Shown: in pieces, positions 2,737-26,521 of the stretch
How the letters are laid out: every line of letters starts with the position of its first letter
Position numbering within the stretch: the stretch's first letter is position 1
Source of the DNA: Bacteroidota bacterium
GTDB lineage: Bacteria; Bacteroidota; Bacteroidia; NS11-12g; UBA955
Assembly (NCBI GenBank): GCA_040386935.1
Contig: JAZKEQ010000030.1
Location: 600-64,599, forward strand
DNA: 64,000 bases
Direction of reading: 5' to 3'
Position numbers and translations under genes: made by a program
Notes under the pieces: generated by a model
What the model saw: only the letters and a program-made list of their open reading frames with translations
What the model was told of the DNA's origin: nothing
Database searches by the model: none

Positions 2737-3990
2737 CTATCTGATAGCGGCATTCATCAGTTTTTCCTGATTGTAAACGCCCGCTGCTAATTTGTCTTTT
2801 ATTTCAGTAAATGCTTTGATGGTTCTTTCCACATCAGCCATAGTGTGCACAGCTGTAGGAATTAAACGCAAGATAATAATGCCTTTAGGAATTACCGGAT
2901 ATACAACGATAGAACAGAAGATATCGTAATTCTCTCTTAAATCGTAAGTCAAGTGAGTTGACTCAGCAACTGTACCATTCAATACCACAGGTGTAACCGG
3001 GGTAGTGGTAGAGCCGATATTGAATCCTGCAGCTTTCAAACCTGATTGCAAAGCATTCACAATGGTCCATAAATTTTCTTTCAATTCAGGATGTTTTCTG
3101 ATCAAGTCAAGTCTTTTCAATGCACCTATTACTAATGGCATTGGCAACGACTTAGCGTAAATCTGTGAACGCAGATTATAACGCAGGTAGTTCAAAATAT
3201 TTTTTGGTCCTGCAACAAATGCACCGATGCTGGCCATTGATTTTGCAAATGTAGAAAAGTGCAGATCAACACCATCAACAACACCTTGTTCTTCGGAAGT
3301 ACCGCTGCCTTTAGCACCCATGGTACCAAAACCGTGTGCATCGTCAACGAATAATCTGAAGTTGTATTTTTCTTTCAAAGCAACAACGCCTTTCAGGTCG
3401 CCCTGATTACCGCTCATGCCGAATACACCTTCAGTGATAACGAAAATTCCACCACCTGATTTTTCAACCAGTTTAGTAGCGCGTTGCAATTGTTTTTCGC
3501 AACTTTCCATATCGTTGTGTTTGTACATGAAACGCTGACCCATGTGTAAACGGGCACCGTCCACTATACAAGCATGTGATTCTGCATCGTACACGATTAC
3601 GTCATGTCTGTCGACCATTGCATCTATAATAGATACAACGCCCTGGTAACCGAAATTCAATAAAATGGCATCTTCTTTACCAACAAATGCAGCCAATTCT
3701 CTTTCTAATTGTTCGTGAGGATTGCTGTTACCGCTCATCATGCGGGCACCCATCGGGTAAGCCATTCCGTAAGCTGCAGCTGCATCGGCATCCGCTTTTC
3801 TTACTTCGGGGTGGTTGGCCAATCCCAAATAGTTGTTTAAACTCCAGTTTAATTTCTCTTTGCCGTTAAAAACCATTGAAGGGCCAATTTCACCTTCCAG
3901 TTTTGGAAATGTAAAATAACCGTGAGCTTCATTGATGTGGGTGCCTAATGGCCCCATGTTTTTAATTACTTTATCAAATATATCTGCCAT
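2737..3990 (-). CDS. PLP-dependent alpha-oxoamine synthase family acyltransferase (Kbl/BioF/serine-palmitoyltransferase-like)
   Basis: 417 aa. It carries DDAHGFG and the PLP-lysine context FSTFAKSMAS. Substrate cannot be decided from the sequence alone (glycine, serine or cysteate). Confidence 0.85.
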   Translation of the reverse strand: MADIFDKVIKNMGPLGTHINEAHGYFTFPKLEGEIGPSMVFNGKEKLNWSLNNYLGLANHPEVRKADADAAAAYGMAYPMGARMMSGNSNPHEQLERELAAFVGKEDAILLNFGYQGVVSIIDAMVDRHDVIVYDAESHACIVDGARLHMGQRFMYKHNDMESCEKQLQRATKLVEKSGGGIFVITEGVFGMSGNQGDLKGVVALKEKYNFRLFVDDAHGFGTMGAKGSGTSEEQGVVDGVDLHFSTFAKSMASIGAFVAGPKNILNYLRYNLRSQIYAKSLPMPLVIGALKRLDLIRKHPELKENLWTIVNALQSGLKAAGFNIGSTTTPVTPVVLNGTVAESTHLTYDLRENYDIFCSIVVYPVIPKGIIILRLIPTAVHTMADVERTIKAFTEIKDKLAAGVYNQEKLMNAAIR

Positions 3991-7068: not shown

Positions 7069-7076
7069 TACCTTTG
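7069..7076 (+). promoter_or_regulatory. candidate -7 box TACCTTTG upstream of rpsP
   Basis: It matches TAnnTTTG and lies 40 nt upstream of the ATG at 7116. Confidence 0.3.
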
Positions 7077-7115
7077 CACCCCCGTGAGAAATGGAGAACT
7101 CATGGTTTTATAATT

Positions 7116-7763
7116 ATGGCAACAAAATTAAGATTACAGCGTCATGGACGCAAAAAACAAGCCTACTACTACATTGTGGCGGCAGATGCACGTGCTCCGA
7201 GAGATGGTAGATTCATTGAAAGAATTGGTGATTACAACCCTAACACTAATCCTGCAACAATTAACCTCAATCTTGAACACGCAGTTAAATGGTTGGACAA
7301 CGGAGCTATCCCTACGGATACCGTTAAAGCCATTCTTTCTTACAAAGGTGCAATGATGATGCACCATTTACACGGTGGAGTGCGCAAAGGCGCAATGACA
7401 GCGGAACAAGCGGATGTTAAATTTGCAGAATGGATGGCAGCTAAAGATGCTAAAGTTCAAGGCAAACGCGACAACTTAGCAAACAAAAAAGCAGAAGCTA
7501 ACGCTGCTAAATTTAAAGCAGAAACAGCCATTAAAGAAGCTAAAGCTGCAGCAATCGCTGCTAAAATAGCTGCTGAAGAAGCTGCAATCGCTGCTGCTAA
7601 TACACCTGTAGCTGAAGTAGTTGAAACGCCTGCTGTTGAAGCAGAAGTAGCAGAAACTCCGGTTGCTGAAGTAGAAGTAACTGAAACACCTGCTGCTGAA
7701 GCAGAAGTAACAGAAGCTCCTGCTGCAGAAACAGAAGCTCCGGCTGAAAACACAGAAGCTTAA
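7116..7763 (+). CDS. rpsP: 30S ribosomal protein S16 with a long Ala/Glu/Thr/Pro-rich C-terminal tail
   Basis: [42 protein letters not shown] is the canonical S16 N-terminus. The start is the ATG at 7116, not the track start at 7074. Confidence 0.9.
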
Positions 7764-11674: not shown

Positions 11675-12379
11675 TTACGAGCGGTTAAATAACAGCGAGT
11701 GAATGTTCGATTTGTAAATACGGCCAACGGGTACTTCACCCATTCCTGAAAGTTTGATTTGATTAGCGGATACAGAGTCTATGAAATCGGTATTCACGAT
11801 ATAGGATTTGTGTACCATGATAAAGCGTTGGGAATCGAGTTGGCGGTAAAAGTTTTTGAGTGTTGAATGCACAGTATGCGAACGACCGTTTTGCAAATGC
11901 ACTTTTACATAATTCTGCATACCTGAAATATAGACCAACTCCGACAGATTGATTTTTTGAAGACGTCCATTAATTTTTATGAGGAAAAAATCTTTTTTAC
12001 CTGAGGCTGCATTGGTCATTATATTGAATTGCTTCAGGGCTTTTTCAGCGCTGTTTTCAAATTGGCTGAGTTGAATAGGTTTCATAAGCGTGTCAAGGGG
12101 TTTAAGTGTATTGTTTGATTTGGATGTCGAAGTTTGTAATAGGACAATAGCAGGTGGGCGACCGGCAGCGTTACGGATAACAGCTAAAGCGGAGAGGCCG
12201 GGAAATTCATCGCTTACAAACAGCACATCAATGCTATTGGTACTCATCAATTCAAGGGCAATTTCAGGGTTGGGCGCATAACCTGAAAAGTAAAGGTAAC
12301 CTACAATTGCAATGAATTCACGAATCTTCTCACCCACCACAGGGTCGTTGTCTGCTACAGCACATTTAATAATTGGCAT
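11675..12379 (-). CDS. LytTR-family response regulator
   Basis: It has a receiver domain (DVLFVSDEFPG, LMKPI) and a C-terminal LytTR domain (ISGMQNYVKVHL...HKSYIVN). I start it at the ATG at 12379. The track start at 12454 adds 25 atypical residues. Confidence 0.8.
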   Translation of the reverse strand: MPIIKCAVADNDPVVGEKIREFIAIVGYLYFSGYAPNPEIALELMSTNSIDVLFVSDEFPGLSALAVIRNAAGRPPAIVLLQTSTSKSNNTLKPLDTLMKPIQLSQFENSAEKALKQFNIMTNAASGKKDFFLIKINGRLQKINLSELVYISGMQNYVKVHLQNGRSHTVHSTLKNFYRQLDSQRFIMVHKSYIVNTDFIDSVSANQIKLSGMGEVPVGRIYKSNIHSLLFNRS

Positions 12380-12652
12380 AAAATAGTATAAGTGTAAAAT
12401 GCACTTCGATTCGAGGCAAAAAAATTTCCGCTCCGGCATTTGGCCGACAGTCATATCTCAATACAAACTGATTGTAGTAGGGTGTTTAAACCTGAACTAG
12501 TGTTAAACGGTAGTTTTTCTTATCAAATGGAAGTTATTTGTCTATTGACAACACGAGTTTTAAAAATGTTGCCTGACAATTAAAGGTTTTTGATGAACGA
12601 CAGGGAAAAGGGGGGAGGGAGAGAGTATTTGTGGTGAGTGGAAATTCACCTA

Positions 12653-12961
12653 TTAAATTTTTATTGATAATTCTAAATGGCCACCAAATCCAAGCTCAAC
12701 AATTTTTTGAAGTGTCGAAATTCGTACTTCTTTAATGTCGTTTTCTATTTTTGAAATATATGACTTTGTTGTACCAACTTTTTCAGCAAGCTGTTCTTGT
12801 GTCATACCCAATTCAATACGGGTATTGTGAATTAAAGCTCCCATTTTGAAATTATCATAACCGGCTTCAAGTTCATCGCGTTTTTTTGAACCACGTTTAC
12901 CATAATTTTTTTCTTTGAAATCTTCAAGAGAGGTTAGATTCTTATTTTTTAATTCGCTCAT
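12653..12961 (-). CDS. XRE-family HTH antitoxin (HigA-like)
   Basis: 102 aa with the HTH segment MTQEQLAEKVGTTKSYISKIEN. It lies 26 nt downstream of the toxin-like gene. Confidence 0.8.
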   Translation of the reverse strand: MSELKNKNLTSLEDFKEKNYGKRGSKKRDELEAGYDNFKMGALIHNTRIELGMTQEQLAEKVGTTKSYISKIENDIKEVRISTLQKIVELGFGGHLELSIKI

Positions 12962-12987
12962 GATTTTTATATTGGTGGTGCTTATTG

Positions 12988-13335
12988 TTATTTTTGAAGT
13001 TCGTATTCTGCCTTTATTCTCAAGGCTAATTCAATTTCTTTTTTAGGGGTCTTTTGTGTTTTCTTTTGAAATCCATTTGCGACTATTATTAATTGTCCAT
13101 GATCAAAAAAGCAGAAAATTCTAAAGATATCACTGCCAATTTGAACCCTTATTTCATAAAGTCCATCAGTGCTTTCAATGTGTTTAAGGTACGTTTCAGG
13201 AACTCTTTGTAAGTCTTCAACCAAGTTTAAAGTCCATATAATTTTTGCTTTAACCTTTTTTGATTGCTTGTCAAAGAAGACTTGAAAATAGTTTTTGAAA
13301 AAAGTAACACTTCTAAACTTCTTGTTTTCAGCCAT
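12988..13335 (-). CDS. type II toxin, Gp49/HigB (RelE/ParE superfamily)-like
   Basis: 115 aa. The pattern LKHIESTDGLYEIRVQIGSDIFRIFCFFDHGQLIIVANGFQKKTQKTPKKEIE is typical of phage-derived Gp49-like killer proteins. The toxin-first gene order also fits. Confidence 0.75.
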   Translation of the reverse strand: MAENKKFRSVTFFKNYFQVFFDKQSKKVKAKIIWTLNLVEDLQRVPETYLKHIESTDGLYEIRVQIGSDIFRIFCFFDHGQLIIVANGFQKKTQKTPKKEIELALRIKAEYELQK

Positions 13336-21034: not shown

Positions 21035-21541
21035 TTACTGCTTTTCTTTAGTCAAGGTGTCCAATTTCTTTAAGGTTGTAGGAATTCTATTTTTACCACT
21101 CATGCTATTTATTAATTCACTAGCTTCATTAAGCTTAATTCCAATTGCAGTTATATAAAGTGGATTTATACTTTGGCCTCTTAAAAGTTTTCTTTTGTTT
21201 ATTTTAATAGTAGCAAAGTTTGTTTTTGCTACACCAATTACAGGGATTTTCGAATTTAATTTTTCGTATAAGTGTCCACCTAAGCCTAATTTTCCATTGT
21301 CGTCTAAATATACAAAACCATCAATTATAATCGCTTCTATATTATCAAATTTTATTTTTTCATACAAGCTCATAATACAAGGCAATTCCCTTTTATAAAA
21401 TTCTCCAGAAATATAGTCTTCGATGTTTTCGAGAATTTCAGTATAGATTTCATATTTTTCACAAGTATTCCAACTTTCAAATGCCAAACAAACAGTTTTG
21501 GCTTTATTTCCAAAATAATGAGTATCAAACGCTAAAATCAC
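21035..21541 (-). CDS. endonuclease V-like protein (compact, 168 aa)
   Basis: AFDTHY, YISGEFYKRELP, IIIDGFVYLDDNGKLGLGGHL and PVIGVAKTNF parallel the EndoV blocks (D, PYIPG..FRE.P, DG.G..HPR..G.A.H.G and IGVAK). The C-terminal RIPTTLKKLD parallels RLPEPTR.AD. Confidence 0.7.
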   Translation of the reverse strand: MILAFDTHYFGNKAKTVCLAFESWNTCEKYEIYTEILENIEDYISGEFYKRELPCIMSLYEKIKFDNIEAIIIDGFVYLDDNGKLGLGGHLYEKLNSKIPVIGVAKTNFATIKINKRKLLRGQSINPLYITAIGIKLNEASELINSMSGKNRIPTTLKKLDTLTKEKQ

Positions 21542-22350
21542 AATATATGTTCTATAGGGTCCTTTGGCAATAATAAGTCAGCATAACTAATTGTGTAATT
21601 TAAGAAAGGGTAAACAAAATTCAAACTTTTATTCTCTTCTCCTCTAAGTTTGAAAAACTCCTTTTCCTTTTCTTCACTTGCTAGTTTTAATTGTTCTCCA
21701 TTTTCAAAAAATGGTAAATTGTTTTTAAACTCGAGATATGTCTTTGAGGTCCTAAATGTCATGCCTAACCATCTATTTTCTAATTCAGGAATATTTAATT
21801 TAGTGTCAATGTCTAAAACTATTTTATGTTGAAATTTCATATTGGTTTCTGTTGAAAATAGAATTACTGAATTATGAGTTAAAAATAGTTCAGATTCTTC
21901 ATTCGTTATTTTGTCTTTAATTTTTAGCTTTCTTGTGTTGTGTTCTGTTAGCTTTTCAGGATTTTCATAACAAGAAAATAGCCCAATAAAGGAATTGTTT
22001 TCTAAGTCTAAACTTTGGTCGGAATGAAAGTTCATTTTCGAATACGTAGATTCATATATTTCAATTAGCGAATTATTGAATTGTAGATAAGGAATGTTTT
22101 TAAGGTTGTTTTTTATAACAGTTTGATTTATTGTACTGATTACAAAATTGTGGATTTTGGAAAATTTTTGTGCAGGTAAATTGTACTTGCTTGTCGTTCT
22201 AATAATTGGAACAAGGGTTTTTTCAATACGAACTAAATGATTGGCAATTCTACCATTGGTTATTTTTTCAAATTCAATTGAATTGGATAATTCTTCGAAT
22301 AAATTATCCTCGAACGGAAGAATGACTTTATAAAATTCCAAATCGTTCAT
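21538..22350 (-). CDS. AlkB-like 2OG-Fe(II) dioxygenase
   Basis: NNSLIEIYESTYSKMNFHSDQ...SFIGLFS, LTHNSVILF...KFQHKI and RWLGMTFR match the AlkB pattern (N.Y...H.D, distal H, R....TFR). Its stop overlaps the EndoV-like start by 4 nt. Confidence 0.65.
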   Translation of the reverse strand: MNDLEFYKVILPFEDNLFEELSNSIEFEKITNGRIANHLVRIEKTLVPIIRTTSKYNLPAQKFSKIHNFVISTINQTVIKNNLKNIPYLQFNNSLIEIYESTYSKMNFHSDQSLDLENNSFIGLFSCYENPEKLTEHNTRKLKIKDKITNEESELFLTHNSVILFSTETNMKFQHKIVLDIDTKLNIPELENRWLGMTFRTSKTYLEFKNNLPFFENGEQLKLASEEKEKEFFKLRGEENKSLNFVYPFLNYTISYADLLLPKDPIEHIL

Positions 22351-22358
22351 TGTAATTT

Positions 22359-23585
22359 TTAATATATTGGTTTTTCATAGTCGCCTAAATTCATGCTAAA
22401 ATGGACTTTTCCATATTCAACTAAATTTTCTGTTTTATTTTCTTCGGCATAAGAAGTTCTCAAATTTTCGATGGACTCCATGCTCATTGGTTCAAGTTTA
22501 ATTAAATTATCATTTTCTTTAATGAAAGTTTCACCATTCGTATACAATGCTTCTAAATTAGAACATCTTACTACATATCCCATTCTGATTGGAATTCTTT
22601 CAATATTTAGCATTGAGGGCCTAATTTCATGAGTATATAATCTGTTGGTAGAAAGTGGTATTATGAATACAGAATTTGGATATAATGTTACACTAAATTC
22701 TTTTTCTAAAGTATCATCAGTAACTGTATTTTTCAGTTTAAAGTGAAGCTTTGTTAACCCAGTTATTTGTTTATAACACCAGTCAAATCTATCCGAATTT
22801 GACGGCTCTAAATGTTTAAAATGATTTGTGTCATAAAATGTACAAAACGCAATAACGCCATCTTTGGGCATGTCTTTAGTTTTGTCAGAATGGGCTTTGA
22901 TTTTTGCTTTAATTTCCTTTCCGTTTTCTTCTGGTTTTATTGTGTTTTCATATATTTGAGCTAATACATGATTCAATTTTGTTTCTTTTTCAAAAATATA
23001 CTTCATTGAATCATTCAGGGTATTTAAAATAATATGGTCTGTATTTCTTAAATTATCAGAAGGTCCAGTAAAATTGCTAGAACATCTTAGGAGATGAAAA
23101 TGCAATGTTTCATTATTCTCATAGTCTTCTTTCTTTACTTCGGTTATATAAATACCTTTTCTGAATGCTTTAGTATCTTTGTTTGATTCAGTTAGTTGTT
23201 GAAATTCATGTTCTGATTTAATTTTATTGAAATAATCTTCCTTGTGAAAAAGGTTTCTAAAATATACACCAGCATTATGAATAATAATAGGAACCTCTCC
23301 AAGTGTGACCAGCGTGTTTTTGTTAGTAATCCAATTTTCGAAATTGTTAGATAATTCTTGAATTAAATGAAAAGAGTGATTAATTATTTTAGTATTTGAA
23401 AAATTTCCACAAGCATAAATTTTAATATCATTTTGAATACCCTCTATCTCAGAAAGACTATTAACGACTTTTCCGCAAAAATTTTGAATTAGATATTGTA
23501 GGTCTAAGTTCTCTTCTCCATCATTCTGTAAAACGACAAGTATATTTTTTTCTTTAGTGATTTGATTTTCAAATTGGGGTTTCAT
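22359..23585 (-). CDS. AlkB-like 2OG-Fe(II) dioxygenase with a ~200-aa uncharacterised N-terminal extension
   Basis: The C-terminal half carries LNHVLAQIYEN...KIKAHSDKTKD...GVIAFCTFY, LYPNSVFIIPL...LYTHEIRP and RIPIRMGYVVR. This is the same HxD...H...R.....R arrangement. Confidence 0.6.
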   Translation of the reverse strand: MKPQFENQITKEKNILVVLQNDGEENLDLQYLIQNFCGKVVNSLSEIEGIQNDIKIYACGNFSNTKIINHSFHLIQELSNNFENWITNKNTLVTLGEVPIIIHNAGVYFRNLFHKEDYFNKIKSEHEFQQLTESNKDTKAFRKGIYITEVKKEDYENNETLHFHLLRCSSNFTGPSDNLRNTDHIILNTLNDSMKYIFEKETKLNHVLAQIYENTIKPEENGKEIKAKIKAHSDKTKDMPKDGVIAFCTFYDTNHFKHLEPSNSDRFDWCYKQITGLTKLHFKLKNTVTDDTLEKEFSVTLYPNSVFIIPLSTNRLYTHEIRPSMLNIERIPIRMGYVVRCSNLEALYTNGETFIKENDNLIKLEPMSMESIENLRTSYAEENKTENLVEYGKVHFSMNLGDYEKPIY

Positions 23586-23710
23586 TATTTTACTAATAAC
23601 TTATTTTATTTATGCAATATACCAATTTTCCCAATCCCTCATTCCATTTCTTCAATAAATTCACCAAATAGTCAAATTGTAAGTCCTGTAGCCTTATAAT
23701 TTTCCCAAAA

Positions 23711-24005
23711 ATCGAACTCTGGTTCGAAATTCAACGAACGCAGTTCGAAAAATAGCGAAAGCAGTTCGAAAAGTAGCGAACGCAGTTAGAAATTCAGCGA
23801 ATACAGTTCGAAAAGTAACGAAAGTAGTTAGAAATTTTGCGAAAGCATTTCGAAATTCGAGGAACGGAGTGAGATATCTAGCGAAAGCAGTGAGAAATTT
23901 AGGGAACGCAGTGAGATATTTAGCGAAAGCAGTTAGAAAATCAGCGAAAGTAGTTAGAAATATTTCGACTGCGATGTGCTCAATTGCCAGCGCAGTTAGT
24001 AATAT
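23711..24005. repeat. head-to-tail array of 12-14 copies of a 21-bp unit, consensus AGCGAAAGCAGTT(C/A)GAAAWWT
   Basis: I parsed the units by hand. Exact 21-nt register holds from 23733 to 23963 (units start at 23733, 23754, 23775, 23796, 23817, 23838, 23859, 23880, 23901, 23922 and 23943). A 22-nt unit lies at 23711 and two decayed units at 23964-24005. Confidence 0.95.
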
Positions 24006-24056
24006 CAGTTGTCACCATTTTTTTTCGAGATGACAAGACAATTGTCAACGAATGAA

Positions 24057-24124
24057 AAAGCACACACATTCAGCAGCTTTGGTTTTTTGCATGAATTTGC
24101 AGGGCTGTTAAAAGTGTGTGCTTT
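24057..24124 (-). terminator. long-loop hairpin downstream of the carbonic anhydrase gene
   Basis: AAAGCACACAC (24057-24067) and GTGTGTGCTTT (24114-24124) form a perfect 11-bp inverted repeat. On the minus strand it is followed by TTTTT. Confidence 0.45.
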
Positions 24125-24147
24125 GTGGTACCGATTTGTTTGATTGG

Positions 24148-24792
24148 TTATGCACCCAAATTCATTGTGTCAGAATAAAAGGTAACATCTCCTGTCGCAA
24201 TATCGTGAGTGCCTCCAATAATTCCGATTTGTCCGCTTTCAATCATTTCTTTTAGGATTGGACTGCGTTCCATTATTGATTTAACGGTTCGCTTTACATT
24301 GATTGTCGCTACTTTTTCAACAAATGCAGGGTTGGTAGAGTTGCGATTTTCCGTTGTTGTATTTTCATCATCAACTGCAGGTCGTATTTTGGTGAGCAAC
24401 GCTGTGAGGTTACCCATTTCTACATGGTCGCAGGCCCCTTTTACAGCTCCGCATTTTGTATGACCTAACACTACAATGATTTTGGAACCTGCTACTTTAC
24501 AAGCAAATTCCATACTGCCTAAAATATCCTCATTGATAATGTTGCCGGCAATACGAACACTAAAAATATCGCCAAGTCCTTGGTCAAAGATGAGTTCAGC
24601 AGAGGTACGACTGTCGATGCAACTCAGAATTACAGCAAAAGGGTGCTGTCCGTCTGAGGTTTCATTTGCTTGTTGCAAAAGGTTGCGGTTCACTTTCAGG
24701 TTGTTTACAAACCTTTTATTTCCTTCTTTTAAAAGTTCTAAAGCCATTGAAGGAGTGATGGCTGCTTGCATTTCTTTTGTTAACGTTTTCAT
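24148..24792 (-). CDS. beta-class carbonic anhydrase
   Basis: It has CIDSR, the GDIFSVRIAGN context and HTKCGAVKGA (the Cys-Asp-Arg...His-x-x-Cys zinc site). Confidence 0.9.
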   Translation of the reverse strand: MKTLTKEMQAAITPSMALELLKEGNKRFVNNLKVNRNLLQQANETSDGQHPFAVILSCIDSRTSAELIFDQGLGDIFSVRIAGNIINEDILGSMEFACKVAGSKIIVVLGHTKCGAVKGACDHVEMGNLTALLTKIRPAVDDENTTTENRNSTNPAFVEKVATINVKRTVKSIMERSPILKEMIESGQIGIIGGTHDIATGDVTFYSDTMNLGA

Positions 24793-24819
24793 TTTTGATT
24801 TGATGTGATTTTGATGGGG

Positions 24820-25713
24820 TTATAATAAATAAAAATTGTCAGGTTGAAGCGGTTTTGGGATGTCAGTTTCTTTTAAGAGTTGCTTTATGTTTATTTCTAT
24901 AGTTCTTGCTATCGCTGTCATAGCGGTGTCTGTTGGTCTGTTTTCAAATGGGTCTTGCATGTGCATGGCTGTTTTTTTCAATAAAAGGAATGCTGCTGAA
25001 ATTAGAAGCAGTAATGGTATCTCAAACATACCGCCAATATCTTTTAATGAAATAGAAAGTGTTACGATGAATAGATAAATAATGGCGTGCAAAAAAAGGC
25101 GGTATGTAACAGGAAATACAGTTGTTTTTATTCTTTCAGATTTTCCTTGTGAATCACAAAGGCGCACCAGGGTATTGTCTAATTGTATTTGCGAAAAAAT
25201 GTCTAATTGATTGTTTTCCTTCAGTGCCTTTATGTCTTTTCCATGCAAGTGAAGCAGTGCTAAAGGTTTGTTGTTGTGTTGCTGTATTTCTTCAAGGTCT
25301 TCCTTAGAAAGAAATTGATCTAAATTTTCAGTTGGGTTCAATCCTCTGAGCGATTGACCTAATGAATAACACCAAGCAATTTGTCTGAATGCGATTTTTT
25401 TCACTATTGGGTCATTGCCTTTGGCCGTTAGGGTTTGCAATTGAATTACATAACTGCGGGAGTCGTTCACTATGGCACCCCATATTTTTCGTGCTTCCCA
25501 CCATCTATCGTAAGATTGACTTAGCTTAAAGGAAAGTAGAATTGAAATAGCAGTACCTATAAATGCAGGAATTGTCAACGGCATATCGGGTAAAAGTTCC
25601 TTAAAACTGTCGGTAATGAATAGTACCGATAAGGATACAATAAGCACATATACAAGGTCATGCTTTACCTTGTTAAATATGTAGGTTAGCGGTATTCGAT
25701 TGTTAAGCAGCAC
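24820..25713 (-). CDS. bestrophin-family (UPF0187/YneE-like) ion channel
   Basis: It has the SYDRWWEARKIWGAIVNDSR signature and four hydrophobic helices. It uses a GTG start. Confidence 0.85.
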   Translation of the reverse strand: MLLNNRIPLTYIFNKVKHDLVYVLIVSLSVLFITDSFKELLPDMPLTIPAFIGTAISILLSFKLSQSYDRWWEARKIWGAIVNDSRSYVIQLQTLTAKGNDPIVKKIAFRQIAWCYSLGQSLRGLNPTENLDQFLSKEDLEEIQQHNNKPLALLHLHGKDIKALKENNQLDIFSQIQLDNTLVRLCDSQGKSERIKTTVFPVTYRLFLHAIIYLFIVTLSISLKDIGGMFEIPLLLLISAAFLLLKKTAMHMQDPFENRPTDTAMTAIARTIEINIKQLLKETDIPKPLQPDNFYLL

Positions 25714-25843: not shown

Positions 25844-26521
25844 ATGAAGTTACAGTTACAGATAAAAATGAATGAAGCATTGTTTCTTCGCAATCCGGAA
25901 AGTTCGGAGTTAGGAAAGAATATTTTAAAGCATGGTATTCAACTTATCTATAAAGGAGGCTTTGAGGCATTTACTTTTAAGAAACTTGCTGAAGATATTG
26001 GAACAACTGAGGCCGGTATTTACCGCTACTTTGAAAATAAACATAAGCTATTGGTGTACCTAACGGCTTGGTATTGGGGTTGGCTTGAATTTCAGATCAG
26101 TTTTCATACCAATAATATCGCGGACCCATCTGTTAAGTTAAAAAAAGTAATAAAACTATTGGCAACAGCCGTTGAAGATGATGAACAAACCAGTTATATC
26201 AATGAAAGTTTGCTGCATCAAATAATTATAGCAGAAGGCTCAAAGGCCTACCTTACCAAACAAGTTGGCGAAGATAATAAGCAGCAGTTTTTTAAACCAT
26301 ACAAAGACCTGTGTGCAGTTATTGGAAATATTATTTTAGAATGCAGTCCAAAATATAAGTACCCCAAGTCGTTAGCATCCACTATTATCGAAATGGCGCA
26401 TTTTCAAAATTTCTTCATGAACAATTTGCCTTCACTTACCGATTTCGGCAAAACAAAGGAGGAAAGCGAAATAATAGCTTTTCTGAACGATTTGGTTTTT
26501 ACAAGTTTTAAGAAAGTTTAG
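25844..26521 (+). CDS. TetR/AcrR-family transcriptional regulator
   Basis: The N-terminal HTH is FTFKKLAEDIGTTEAGIYRYFENKHKLL. Confidence 0.85.
   Translation: MKLQLQIKMNEALFLRNPESSELGKNILKHGIQLIYKGGFEAFTFKKLAEDIGTTEAGIYRYFENKHKLLVYLTAWYWGWLEFQISFHTNNIADPSVKLKKVIKLLATAVEDDEQTSYINESLLHQIIIAEGSKAYLTKQVGEDNKQQFFKPYKDLCAVIGNIILECSPKYKYPKSLASTIIEMAHFQNFFMNNLPSLTDFGKTKEESEIIAFLNDLVFTSFKKV

Follow-up and report, generated by a model that had tools for sequence, protein, structure and literature searches.

The window, a 64,000-nucleotide stretch of a 73-kb contig from an uncultured Bacteroidota MAG, contains an array of 21-bp tandem repeats between a carbonic anhydrase gene and a cassette of putative nucleic acid-processing genes. 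All the surrounding genes lie on the minus strand, in the order bestrophin, beta-carbonic anhydrase, a terminator hairpin, a cluster of TTGTCA/TGACAA half-sites, the repeat array, about 136 bp of unique DNA, and the three-gene cassette. The features of this region are as follows.

24148-24792, minus strand: beta-carbonic anhydrase gene (Pro_CA), the upstream neighbour
24057-24124, minus strand: carbonic anhydrase terminator, a long hairpin with a T-run, conserved in sequence in L020, L021 and L022
24009-24050: TTGTCA/TGACAA half-site cluster containing the perfect palindrome GACAATTGTC; adjoins the array and is not a repeat unit
23974-24015: two decayed units at the distal edge, with the 21-nt register kept and GCA|GTTAG found again at 23992
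23722-23973: core array of 12 head-to-tail 21-bp units in perfect register, consensus GTTAGAAATTTAGCGAAAGCA
23701-23721: decayed unit at the operon-proximal edge, TTTCCCAAAAATCGAACTCTG
23702-23727, minus strand: short hairpin TCGAAC-CAGA-GTTCGA and then TTTTTGGG, a weak terminator-like site at the array end nearest the operon
22359-23585, minus strand: 408-aa protein with an invariant HxD...H...R and an AlkB/ABH2-like fold, the first gene downstream of the array
21538-22350, minus strand: AlkB-like 2OG-Fe(II) dioxygenase, 270 aa
21035-21541, minus strand: Endonuclease V-like protein, 168 aa
19965-20936, minus strand: leucine-rich-repeat protein, 323 aa, at the far end of a low-GC (about 28%) island

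This placement agrees with the initial annotation: the array occupies the interval 126-420 bp upstream of the cassette's ATG (23585), and the terminator lies upstream of it in turn. The TTGTCA/TGACAA cluster could be a candidate operator for some regulator. A sigma-70 scan returned one weak minus-strand match, inside the 408-aa gene, and the exact Bacteroidetes -7 box (TAnnTTTG) does not occur on the minus strand between the array and the ATG, so the cassette promoter is not placed. The carbonic anhydrase hairpin is an observation in its own right. It has counterparts after beta-carbonic anhydrase genes in distinct genomes (L020, 6680-6745; L021, 6675-6735; and L022), in which the conserved sequence AAGCACAC ... 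AAATTCA ... GTGTGCT exceeds the needs of a plain terminator. The four sequences contain no covariation in the hairpin and no Rfam family corresponds to it.

The evidence supports the earlier reading of the cassette as an AlkB/EndoV operon, with two AlkB-fold dioxygenases and an EndoV-like nuclease. The 408-aa protein has no Pfam match and carries an extra N-terminal domain, and its predicted structure (pLDDT 77) resembles the ABH2/AlkB fold (Foldseek E = 1e-7, TM 0.70). More than 2700 homologues were found, with 60-75% identity among the 120 best listed, and these occur in Flavobacterium, Chitinophaga, Flexibacter and other Bacteroidota. The genes for the 408-aa and AlkB-like proteins co-occur in the window and at related loci (L001, L003, L004 and L016-L019), usually with the EndoV-like gene, which is missing from L016 and L017. 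At L018 the cassette adjoins an HTH gene and a DNA methylase gene. The cassette looks like an uncharacterised module for nucleic-acid repair, modification or defence. Together with the leucine-rich-repeat gene it forms a 28% GC island against a background of 38.6% GC; tRNA genes and flanking direct or inverted repeats were not found at the island ends. Cassette GC is also below that of the flanks in L001, L003 and L004, and the neighbours differ each time, which places the array at the edge of an island.

The anatomy of the array largely bears out what had been described. The 12-14 head-to-tail copies claimed correspond to 12 clean units and decayed flanking units, which together span about 23701-24015. 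An exact 21-nt register had been proposed for eleven consecutive units, and the 12 units of 23722-23973 align with zero indels. Tandem Repeats Finder reports the array at 23722-23961 with a period of 21, 11.4 copies, 73% matches and a score of 212, and gives periods of 42 and 63 slightly higher scores. Mean pairwise identity among the core units is ~70-75%, with near-identical pairs within the set (units 8 and 10 agree at 20/21 positions, units 2 and 3 at 19/21). The three predicted unit types are all present, TTCGAA in five units, TTAGAA in four and TGAGA(A/T)A in three. Ten columns stand out across the units, six of them invariant and four almost invariant (G1 T2 G5 A6 A8 G15 A16 A17 G19 A21), the others varying freely; this uneven column conservation loses significance once the common descent of the units is taken into account. 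Self-similarity between the halves of the 21-mer is not significant, so a 10/11-bp half-unit substructure was rejected. Within the 64-kb window the unit pattern (up to 3 mismatches) has 10 matches, all inside the array, against a chance expectation of 0.18. The units abut with zero spacers, which agrees with the earlier view that this is not a CRISPR, as CRISPR arrays have unique spacers between repeats.

Comparison with related loci bears on whether the array belongs to the cassette. Nine homologous cassettes with about 57-75% protein identity were compared, several of which have a spacer of only 80-225 bp. None has a comparable tandem repeat in the 800 bp upstream, and these upstream regions are alignable neither to the array region nor to one another. 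Conservation of the array with the cassette was accordingly rejected. A relative with shared synteny on the other side (L020) keeps the TetR-bestrophin-carbonic anhydrase order and the terminator hairpin, with a carbonic anhydrase 94% identical, and lacks the array. The TetR protein of the window is encoded at 25844-26521. The role specific to this operon that had been suggested therefore receives no backing from conservation. The only other assembly of the organism (L024, SRR26324619; a Logan contig) ends inside the 408-aa gene, before the array.

The initial annotation had named a scatter of the 21-mer over unrelated loci, as a generic satellite, among the findings that would refute a role specific to this operon. 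This outcome was not seen, since no other copy was found in the window or in the collections searched, and a local role in binding or architecture is accordingly conceivable. A degenerate two-unit pattern gave 0 matches in 185,579 species-representative genomes, the JGI metagenomes and IMG/VR, and BLAST in distant mode found no match in plasmid and phage collections. A looser pattern of invariant columns only matched at eight loci, seven in genomes and one viral. Among those in genomes, four are ordinary coding heptads in Bacillota and the other three are unrelated-looking intergenic 21-bp arrays in Bacteroidales. The nearest of the latter (L009, GTACGAAAGCACACGAACGCA x 4.5) matches at 6/7 free positions around ACGAACGCAGTnCGAAA. 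The match is borderline after multiple testing, the ORF frame of L009 differs from the open frame of the array, and we treated it as a chance match.

Tandem repeats of this general kind are encountered elsewhere in the phylum. Intergenic 21-bp arrays of 4-10 units, each with its own unit, were seen in Bacteroidales/Prevotellaceae (L009, 4823-4925; L010, about 3100-3230; L011, about 2015-2230), that of L009 lying ~300 bp upstream of a BspA-like leucine-rich-repeat gene, and 21-bp intergenic minisatellites may be recurrent in Bacteroidota. An unrelated metagenomic contig (L005, 3103-3362) contains an intergenic 42-bp x 6.2 array with 89% matches, of which a gene caller made a 169-aa heptad 'protein'. 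Its unit is loosely like that of the array (GCnGTTCGnAAAAT..CGAAnGC), a resemblance that possibly reflects selection bias because the contig was found only via a peptide search. In Flavobacterium sp. ZT3R18 (L001, 8327-8418) the CTP synthase gene is immediately preceded by a promoter-proximal 17-bp x 5.4 repeat. The window holds a further repeat at 7623-7737 (30 nt x 3.8, or 60 nt x 2.1) inside ORF 7074-7763, presumably a coding Ala/Glu/Thr/Pro-rich repeat. Small arrays (period of at least 12, at least 3.5 copies) are common: the Bacteroidota sequences examined contain roughly one per 30-40 kb.

The helical repeat of the array raises the question of DNA shape, and it has been proposed that each unit carries two A-tracts, giving ~25 in phase and a strongly curved segment. 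With an A-tract defined as a run of at least four A/T without a TpA step, this is an overcount: the array contains about 12 true A-tracts, one per 21 bp, and the second A site amounts to no more than A3 in six units and AA in the rest. These 12 tracts do share one phase, and nowhere in the window is AAA periodicity near 10.5 bp stronger. How A-tract periodicity relates to curvature has been reviewed (PMC3372288 and PMC3940949). In a wedge model with approximate Bolshoy-Trifonov parameters, for which the controls behaved (phased A6, 0.32; unphased tracts, 0.98), the end-to-end/contour ratio of the array is 0.80 against a window median of 0.93. This ranks it in the top 4.3% of the window; strong curvature is nevertheless an overstatement, given how far the value lies from the phased A6 control, and several other window regions, coding or ordinary, are predicted to be more curved. 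Column-permuted 21-periodic arrays of equal composition gave a ratio of 0.76 +/- 0.18, placing the real array at the 49th percentile, and the bend thus appears to be a generic by-product of the 21-bp period and not a tuned property. The array resembles phased A-tract curved DNA in that its tracts recur in helical phase upstream of the promoter region, and differs in having one true A-tract per two turns and a modest predicted bend. The proposal that it acts by DNA shape alone, as a curved upstream element aiding RNA polymerase or nucleoid proteins at the promoter of an AT-rich island, draws on the phasing, the periodicity and the rank within the window. We consider it very unlikely given the untuned sequence, the approximate parameters and the lack of conservation with the operon.

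A 21-nt period is also compatible with translation into heptads, and an open frame covers the repeats.

23692-24033, plus strand: stop-to-stop open frame of 113 codons with VRxxAxA heptads, spanning the whole array

Of these codons 29 lie outside the clean repeats, and the frame ends at a TGA (24031-24033) 24 nt before the hairpin. The array may on this basis be coding, now or formerly, for a coiled-coil-like peptide, which could be a 54-aa ORF starting at GTG 23869 (23869-24033) or what is left of the C-terminal part of a gene that ran towards carbonic anhydrase and lost its 5' end at island insertion. The three unit types are synonymous in this frame, since GTT CGA, GTT AGA and GTG AGA each specify Val-Arg. 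In the clean units Val occupies heptad position a throughout, position d is mostly I/V/L/F, and the indel-free register would fit reading-frame maintenance equally well. In column permutations, the combination of no stop and at least 10 synonymous changes has a probability of 0.028, while the absence of a stop has a probability of 0.13 when taken singly. The frame is nonetheless devoid of ATG, GTG and TTG in its first 59 codons, GTG 23869 being the first start, and the 10 synonymous against 31 non-synonymous differences are not an enrichment (p = 0.24). A minus-strand frame of 105 codons is equally open. A phmmer search of 1.84 billion representatives retrieved unrelated repeat ORFs and nothing else; the best E was 1.7e-13, none reached 1e-30, and none matched the non-repeat tail. 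Neither the protein collection nor the NCBI annotation contains the ORF, no CDS separating the consecutive accessions MES2617950, with locus tag V4613_08725, and MES2617951 in the NCBI record, and relatives show no convergent gene after carbonic anhydrase. Known coding heptad repeats (L007 and L012) share with the array the 21-nt period, the open frame and the a/d hydrophobic pattern, but lie inside ORFs with an ATG start, whereas the array has no 5' start, homologues or annotation. The coding signal is suggestive but weak, and a coding array is in our view most improbable.

Four units contain the mini-hairpin motif GCGAAAGC, exactly as had been reported (at 23755, 23839, 23881 and 23923), and a small palindrome, CGAAC-GCA-GTTCG, is formed at some unit junctions. 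These elements are what would recommend the array as a structured RNA, or the motifs as functional single-stranded DNA mini-hairpins. On either strand, the predicted RNA and DNA folds do not improve on those of shuffled sequences (z = -1.4 to -1.9), Rfam yields no match, and a motif found in only 4/12 units is not conserved within the array. On the strength of the shuffle-level folds and the lack of an Rfam match both of these roles were rejected as scarcely credible.

The regular spacing of the units is the property most difficult to reconcile with drift. Indel-to-substitution ratios in bacteria are roughly 0.05-0.15. At ~27% divergence at least two indels would then be expected in the array, and the probability of observing none is at most about 0.13, which by inference hints at a constraint on spacing or on reading frame. 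Because the register is free of indels over about 290 bp, a phased protein-binding array stays a minority possibility. Such an array would offer 12-14 helically phased sites on which a DNA-binding protein polymerises along one helix face, activating, silencing or insulating the cassette promoter. The grouping of the invariant columns as GT..GA.A and GAA.G.A is consistent with a binding site, and, since the array ends about 135 bp from the ATG, its proximal unit could sit just upstream of the promoter. Candidate binders are a LytTR-type regulator or an iteron-like or centromere-like protein.

The LytTR family is suggested by its operator geometry, in which 9-bp direct repeats 12 bp apart (PMC6193735) produce a 21-bp period, and this period matches the array. 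The window also encodes a LytTR-domain protein (11675-12454). Directly upstream of its gene lie a small HTH (XRE-like) ORF and a 115-aa ORF (12653-13335, minus strand), a pair which may be toxin-antitoxin-like. The unit stretch (A/G)CAGTT(C/A)GA is one that we take to resemble LytTR-type 9-mers, although an estimated ~40% of arbitrary 21-mers hold a 9-mer equally near the loose LytTR consensus. Repeats of 9 bp spaced 12-13 bp apart are likewise present here as they are in any 21-bp repeat. Three things are common to the array and LytTR operators: direct repeats that precede a gene and are spaced 21 bp centre to centre, a core (CAGTTnGA here) that is loosely alike, and a genome that encodes LytTR regulators. 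Known LytTR operators are pairs located about 10 bp from the -35 element and not 12 tandem copies (PMC6193735), whereas the array is a run of 12-14 without an adjacent cognate regulator, the LytTR gene being 11 kb away. A search of the window for LytTR regulon sites found no paired 21-bp-spaced sites elsewhere in the 64 kb, including the region upstream of the LytTR gene.

Direct repeats of 10-22 bp, wrapped by a dedicated protein, also make up plasmid iterons and the parC-like centromeres of type II partition systems, and the array is similar to them in having many phased ~20-bp direct repeats directly upstream of a gene. The iteron-like role put forward in the initial annotation fares poorly against the gene content. 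Instead of an adjacent initiator gene, the neighbours are carbonic anhydrase and AlkB-fold dioxygenases. The genes rep, parM and parR, a DnaA box and an AT-rich unwinding element are absent near the array (no DnaA box TTATCCACA, with up to 1 mismatch, at 22500-25000), and the contig bears chromosomal housekeeping genes. Taking these points together with the absence of such sites from the nine homologous loci and the unplaced promoter, we regard a phased binding array as unlikely. A bolder version holds that the register and the invariant columns reflect selection, and that the array, with its 12-14 same-face sites, nucleates the polymerisation of a DNA-binding protein, LytTR-type or other, to silence or activate the newly acquired cassette; to our knowledge H-NS is lacking in Bacteroidota. 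This version we judge quite unlikely.

The interpretation that we prefer, with a probability of about one half, is a non-coding minisatellite confined to this lineage and sited at the border of an acquired low-GC island. Nothing links the array to the operon in other genomes, and an ordinary bacterial minisatellite is therefore its most likely identity. The decayed edges, the ~70-75% unit identity, the near-identical pairs and the slight preference for a period of 42 over 21 form a signature of duplication followed by drift, and this origin is further favoured by the uniqueness of the array and its absence from all relatives examined. An ancestral 21-mer may have been duplicated by slipped-strand mispairing or unequal recombination, with later duplication of 42-bp blocks. 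The array occupies a non-conserved spacer where the horizontally mobile AlkB-like/AlkB-like/EndoV-like cassette meets the conserved TetR-bestrophin-carbonic anhydrase module, and would be neither ancestral to the cassette nor an integral regulatory part of it. The 21-bp period sets one A-tract per two turns on the same helical face, from which a modest intrinsic bend is predicted. If the array affects the cassette promoter at all, by spacing, by bending or by shielding it from carbonic anhydrase read-through, the effect would be incidental and restricted to this lineage, and the array is probably close to neutral.

Minisatellites and VNTRs are exemplified by the MIRU-type loci of mycobacteria and by VNTRs upstream of regulatory genes, and copy-number polymorphism between strains is their hallmark. 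Minisatellites are built of head-to-tail units of 10-100 bp without spacers and are not conserved functional elements across species, and both properties were found in the array. It is like them also in lying in an intergenic region beside a promoter and in its decayed edge units, block duplications and lineage-specific occurrence. It is different in that its units are already ~27% diverged, so that slippage should now be rare, and in that no dispersed family of the unit was found in the window and five collections. Under strict neutrality it is somewhat unexpected that an old repeat should persist in a genome as compact as that of a bacterium.

The significance of the array depends on which of these interpretations is correct. 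If the register has been selected, this would be a rare case in Bacteroidota of horizontally acquired genes controlled by a long run of phased operators, and if the array serves as a nucleation platform it would represent a lineage-specific, centromere-like solution to the regulation of foreign DNA in this phylum. If the minisatellite interpretation is right, the array is a further instance of an already known type of element and of minor import, and its use would not go beyond marking strains and signalling where an acquired island ends. The double-AlkB/EndoV cassette, which has thousands of homologues and no assigned function, is probably of more interest than the repeats beside it.
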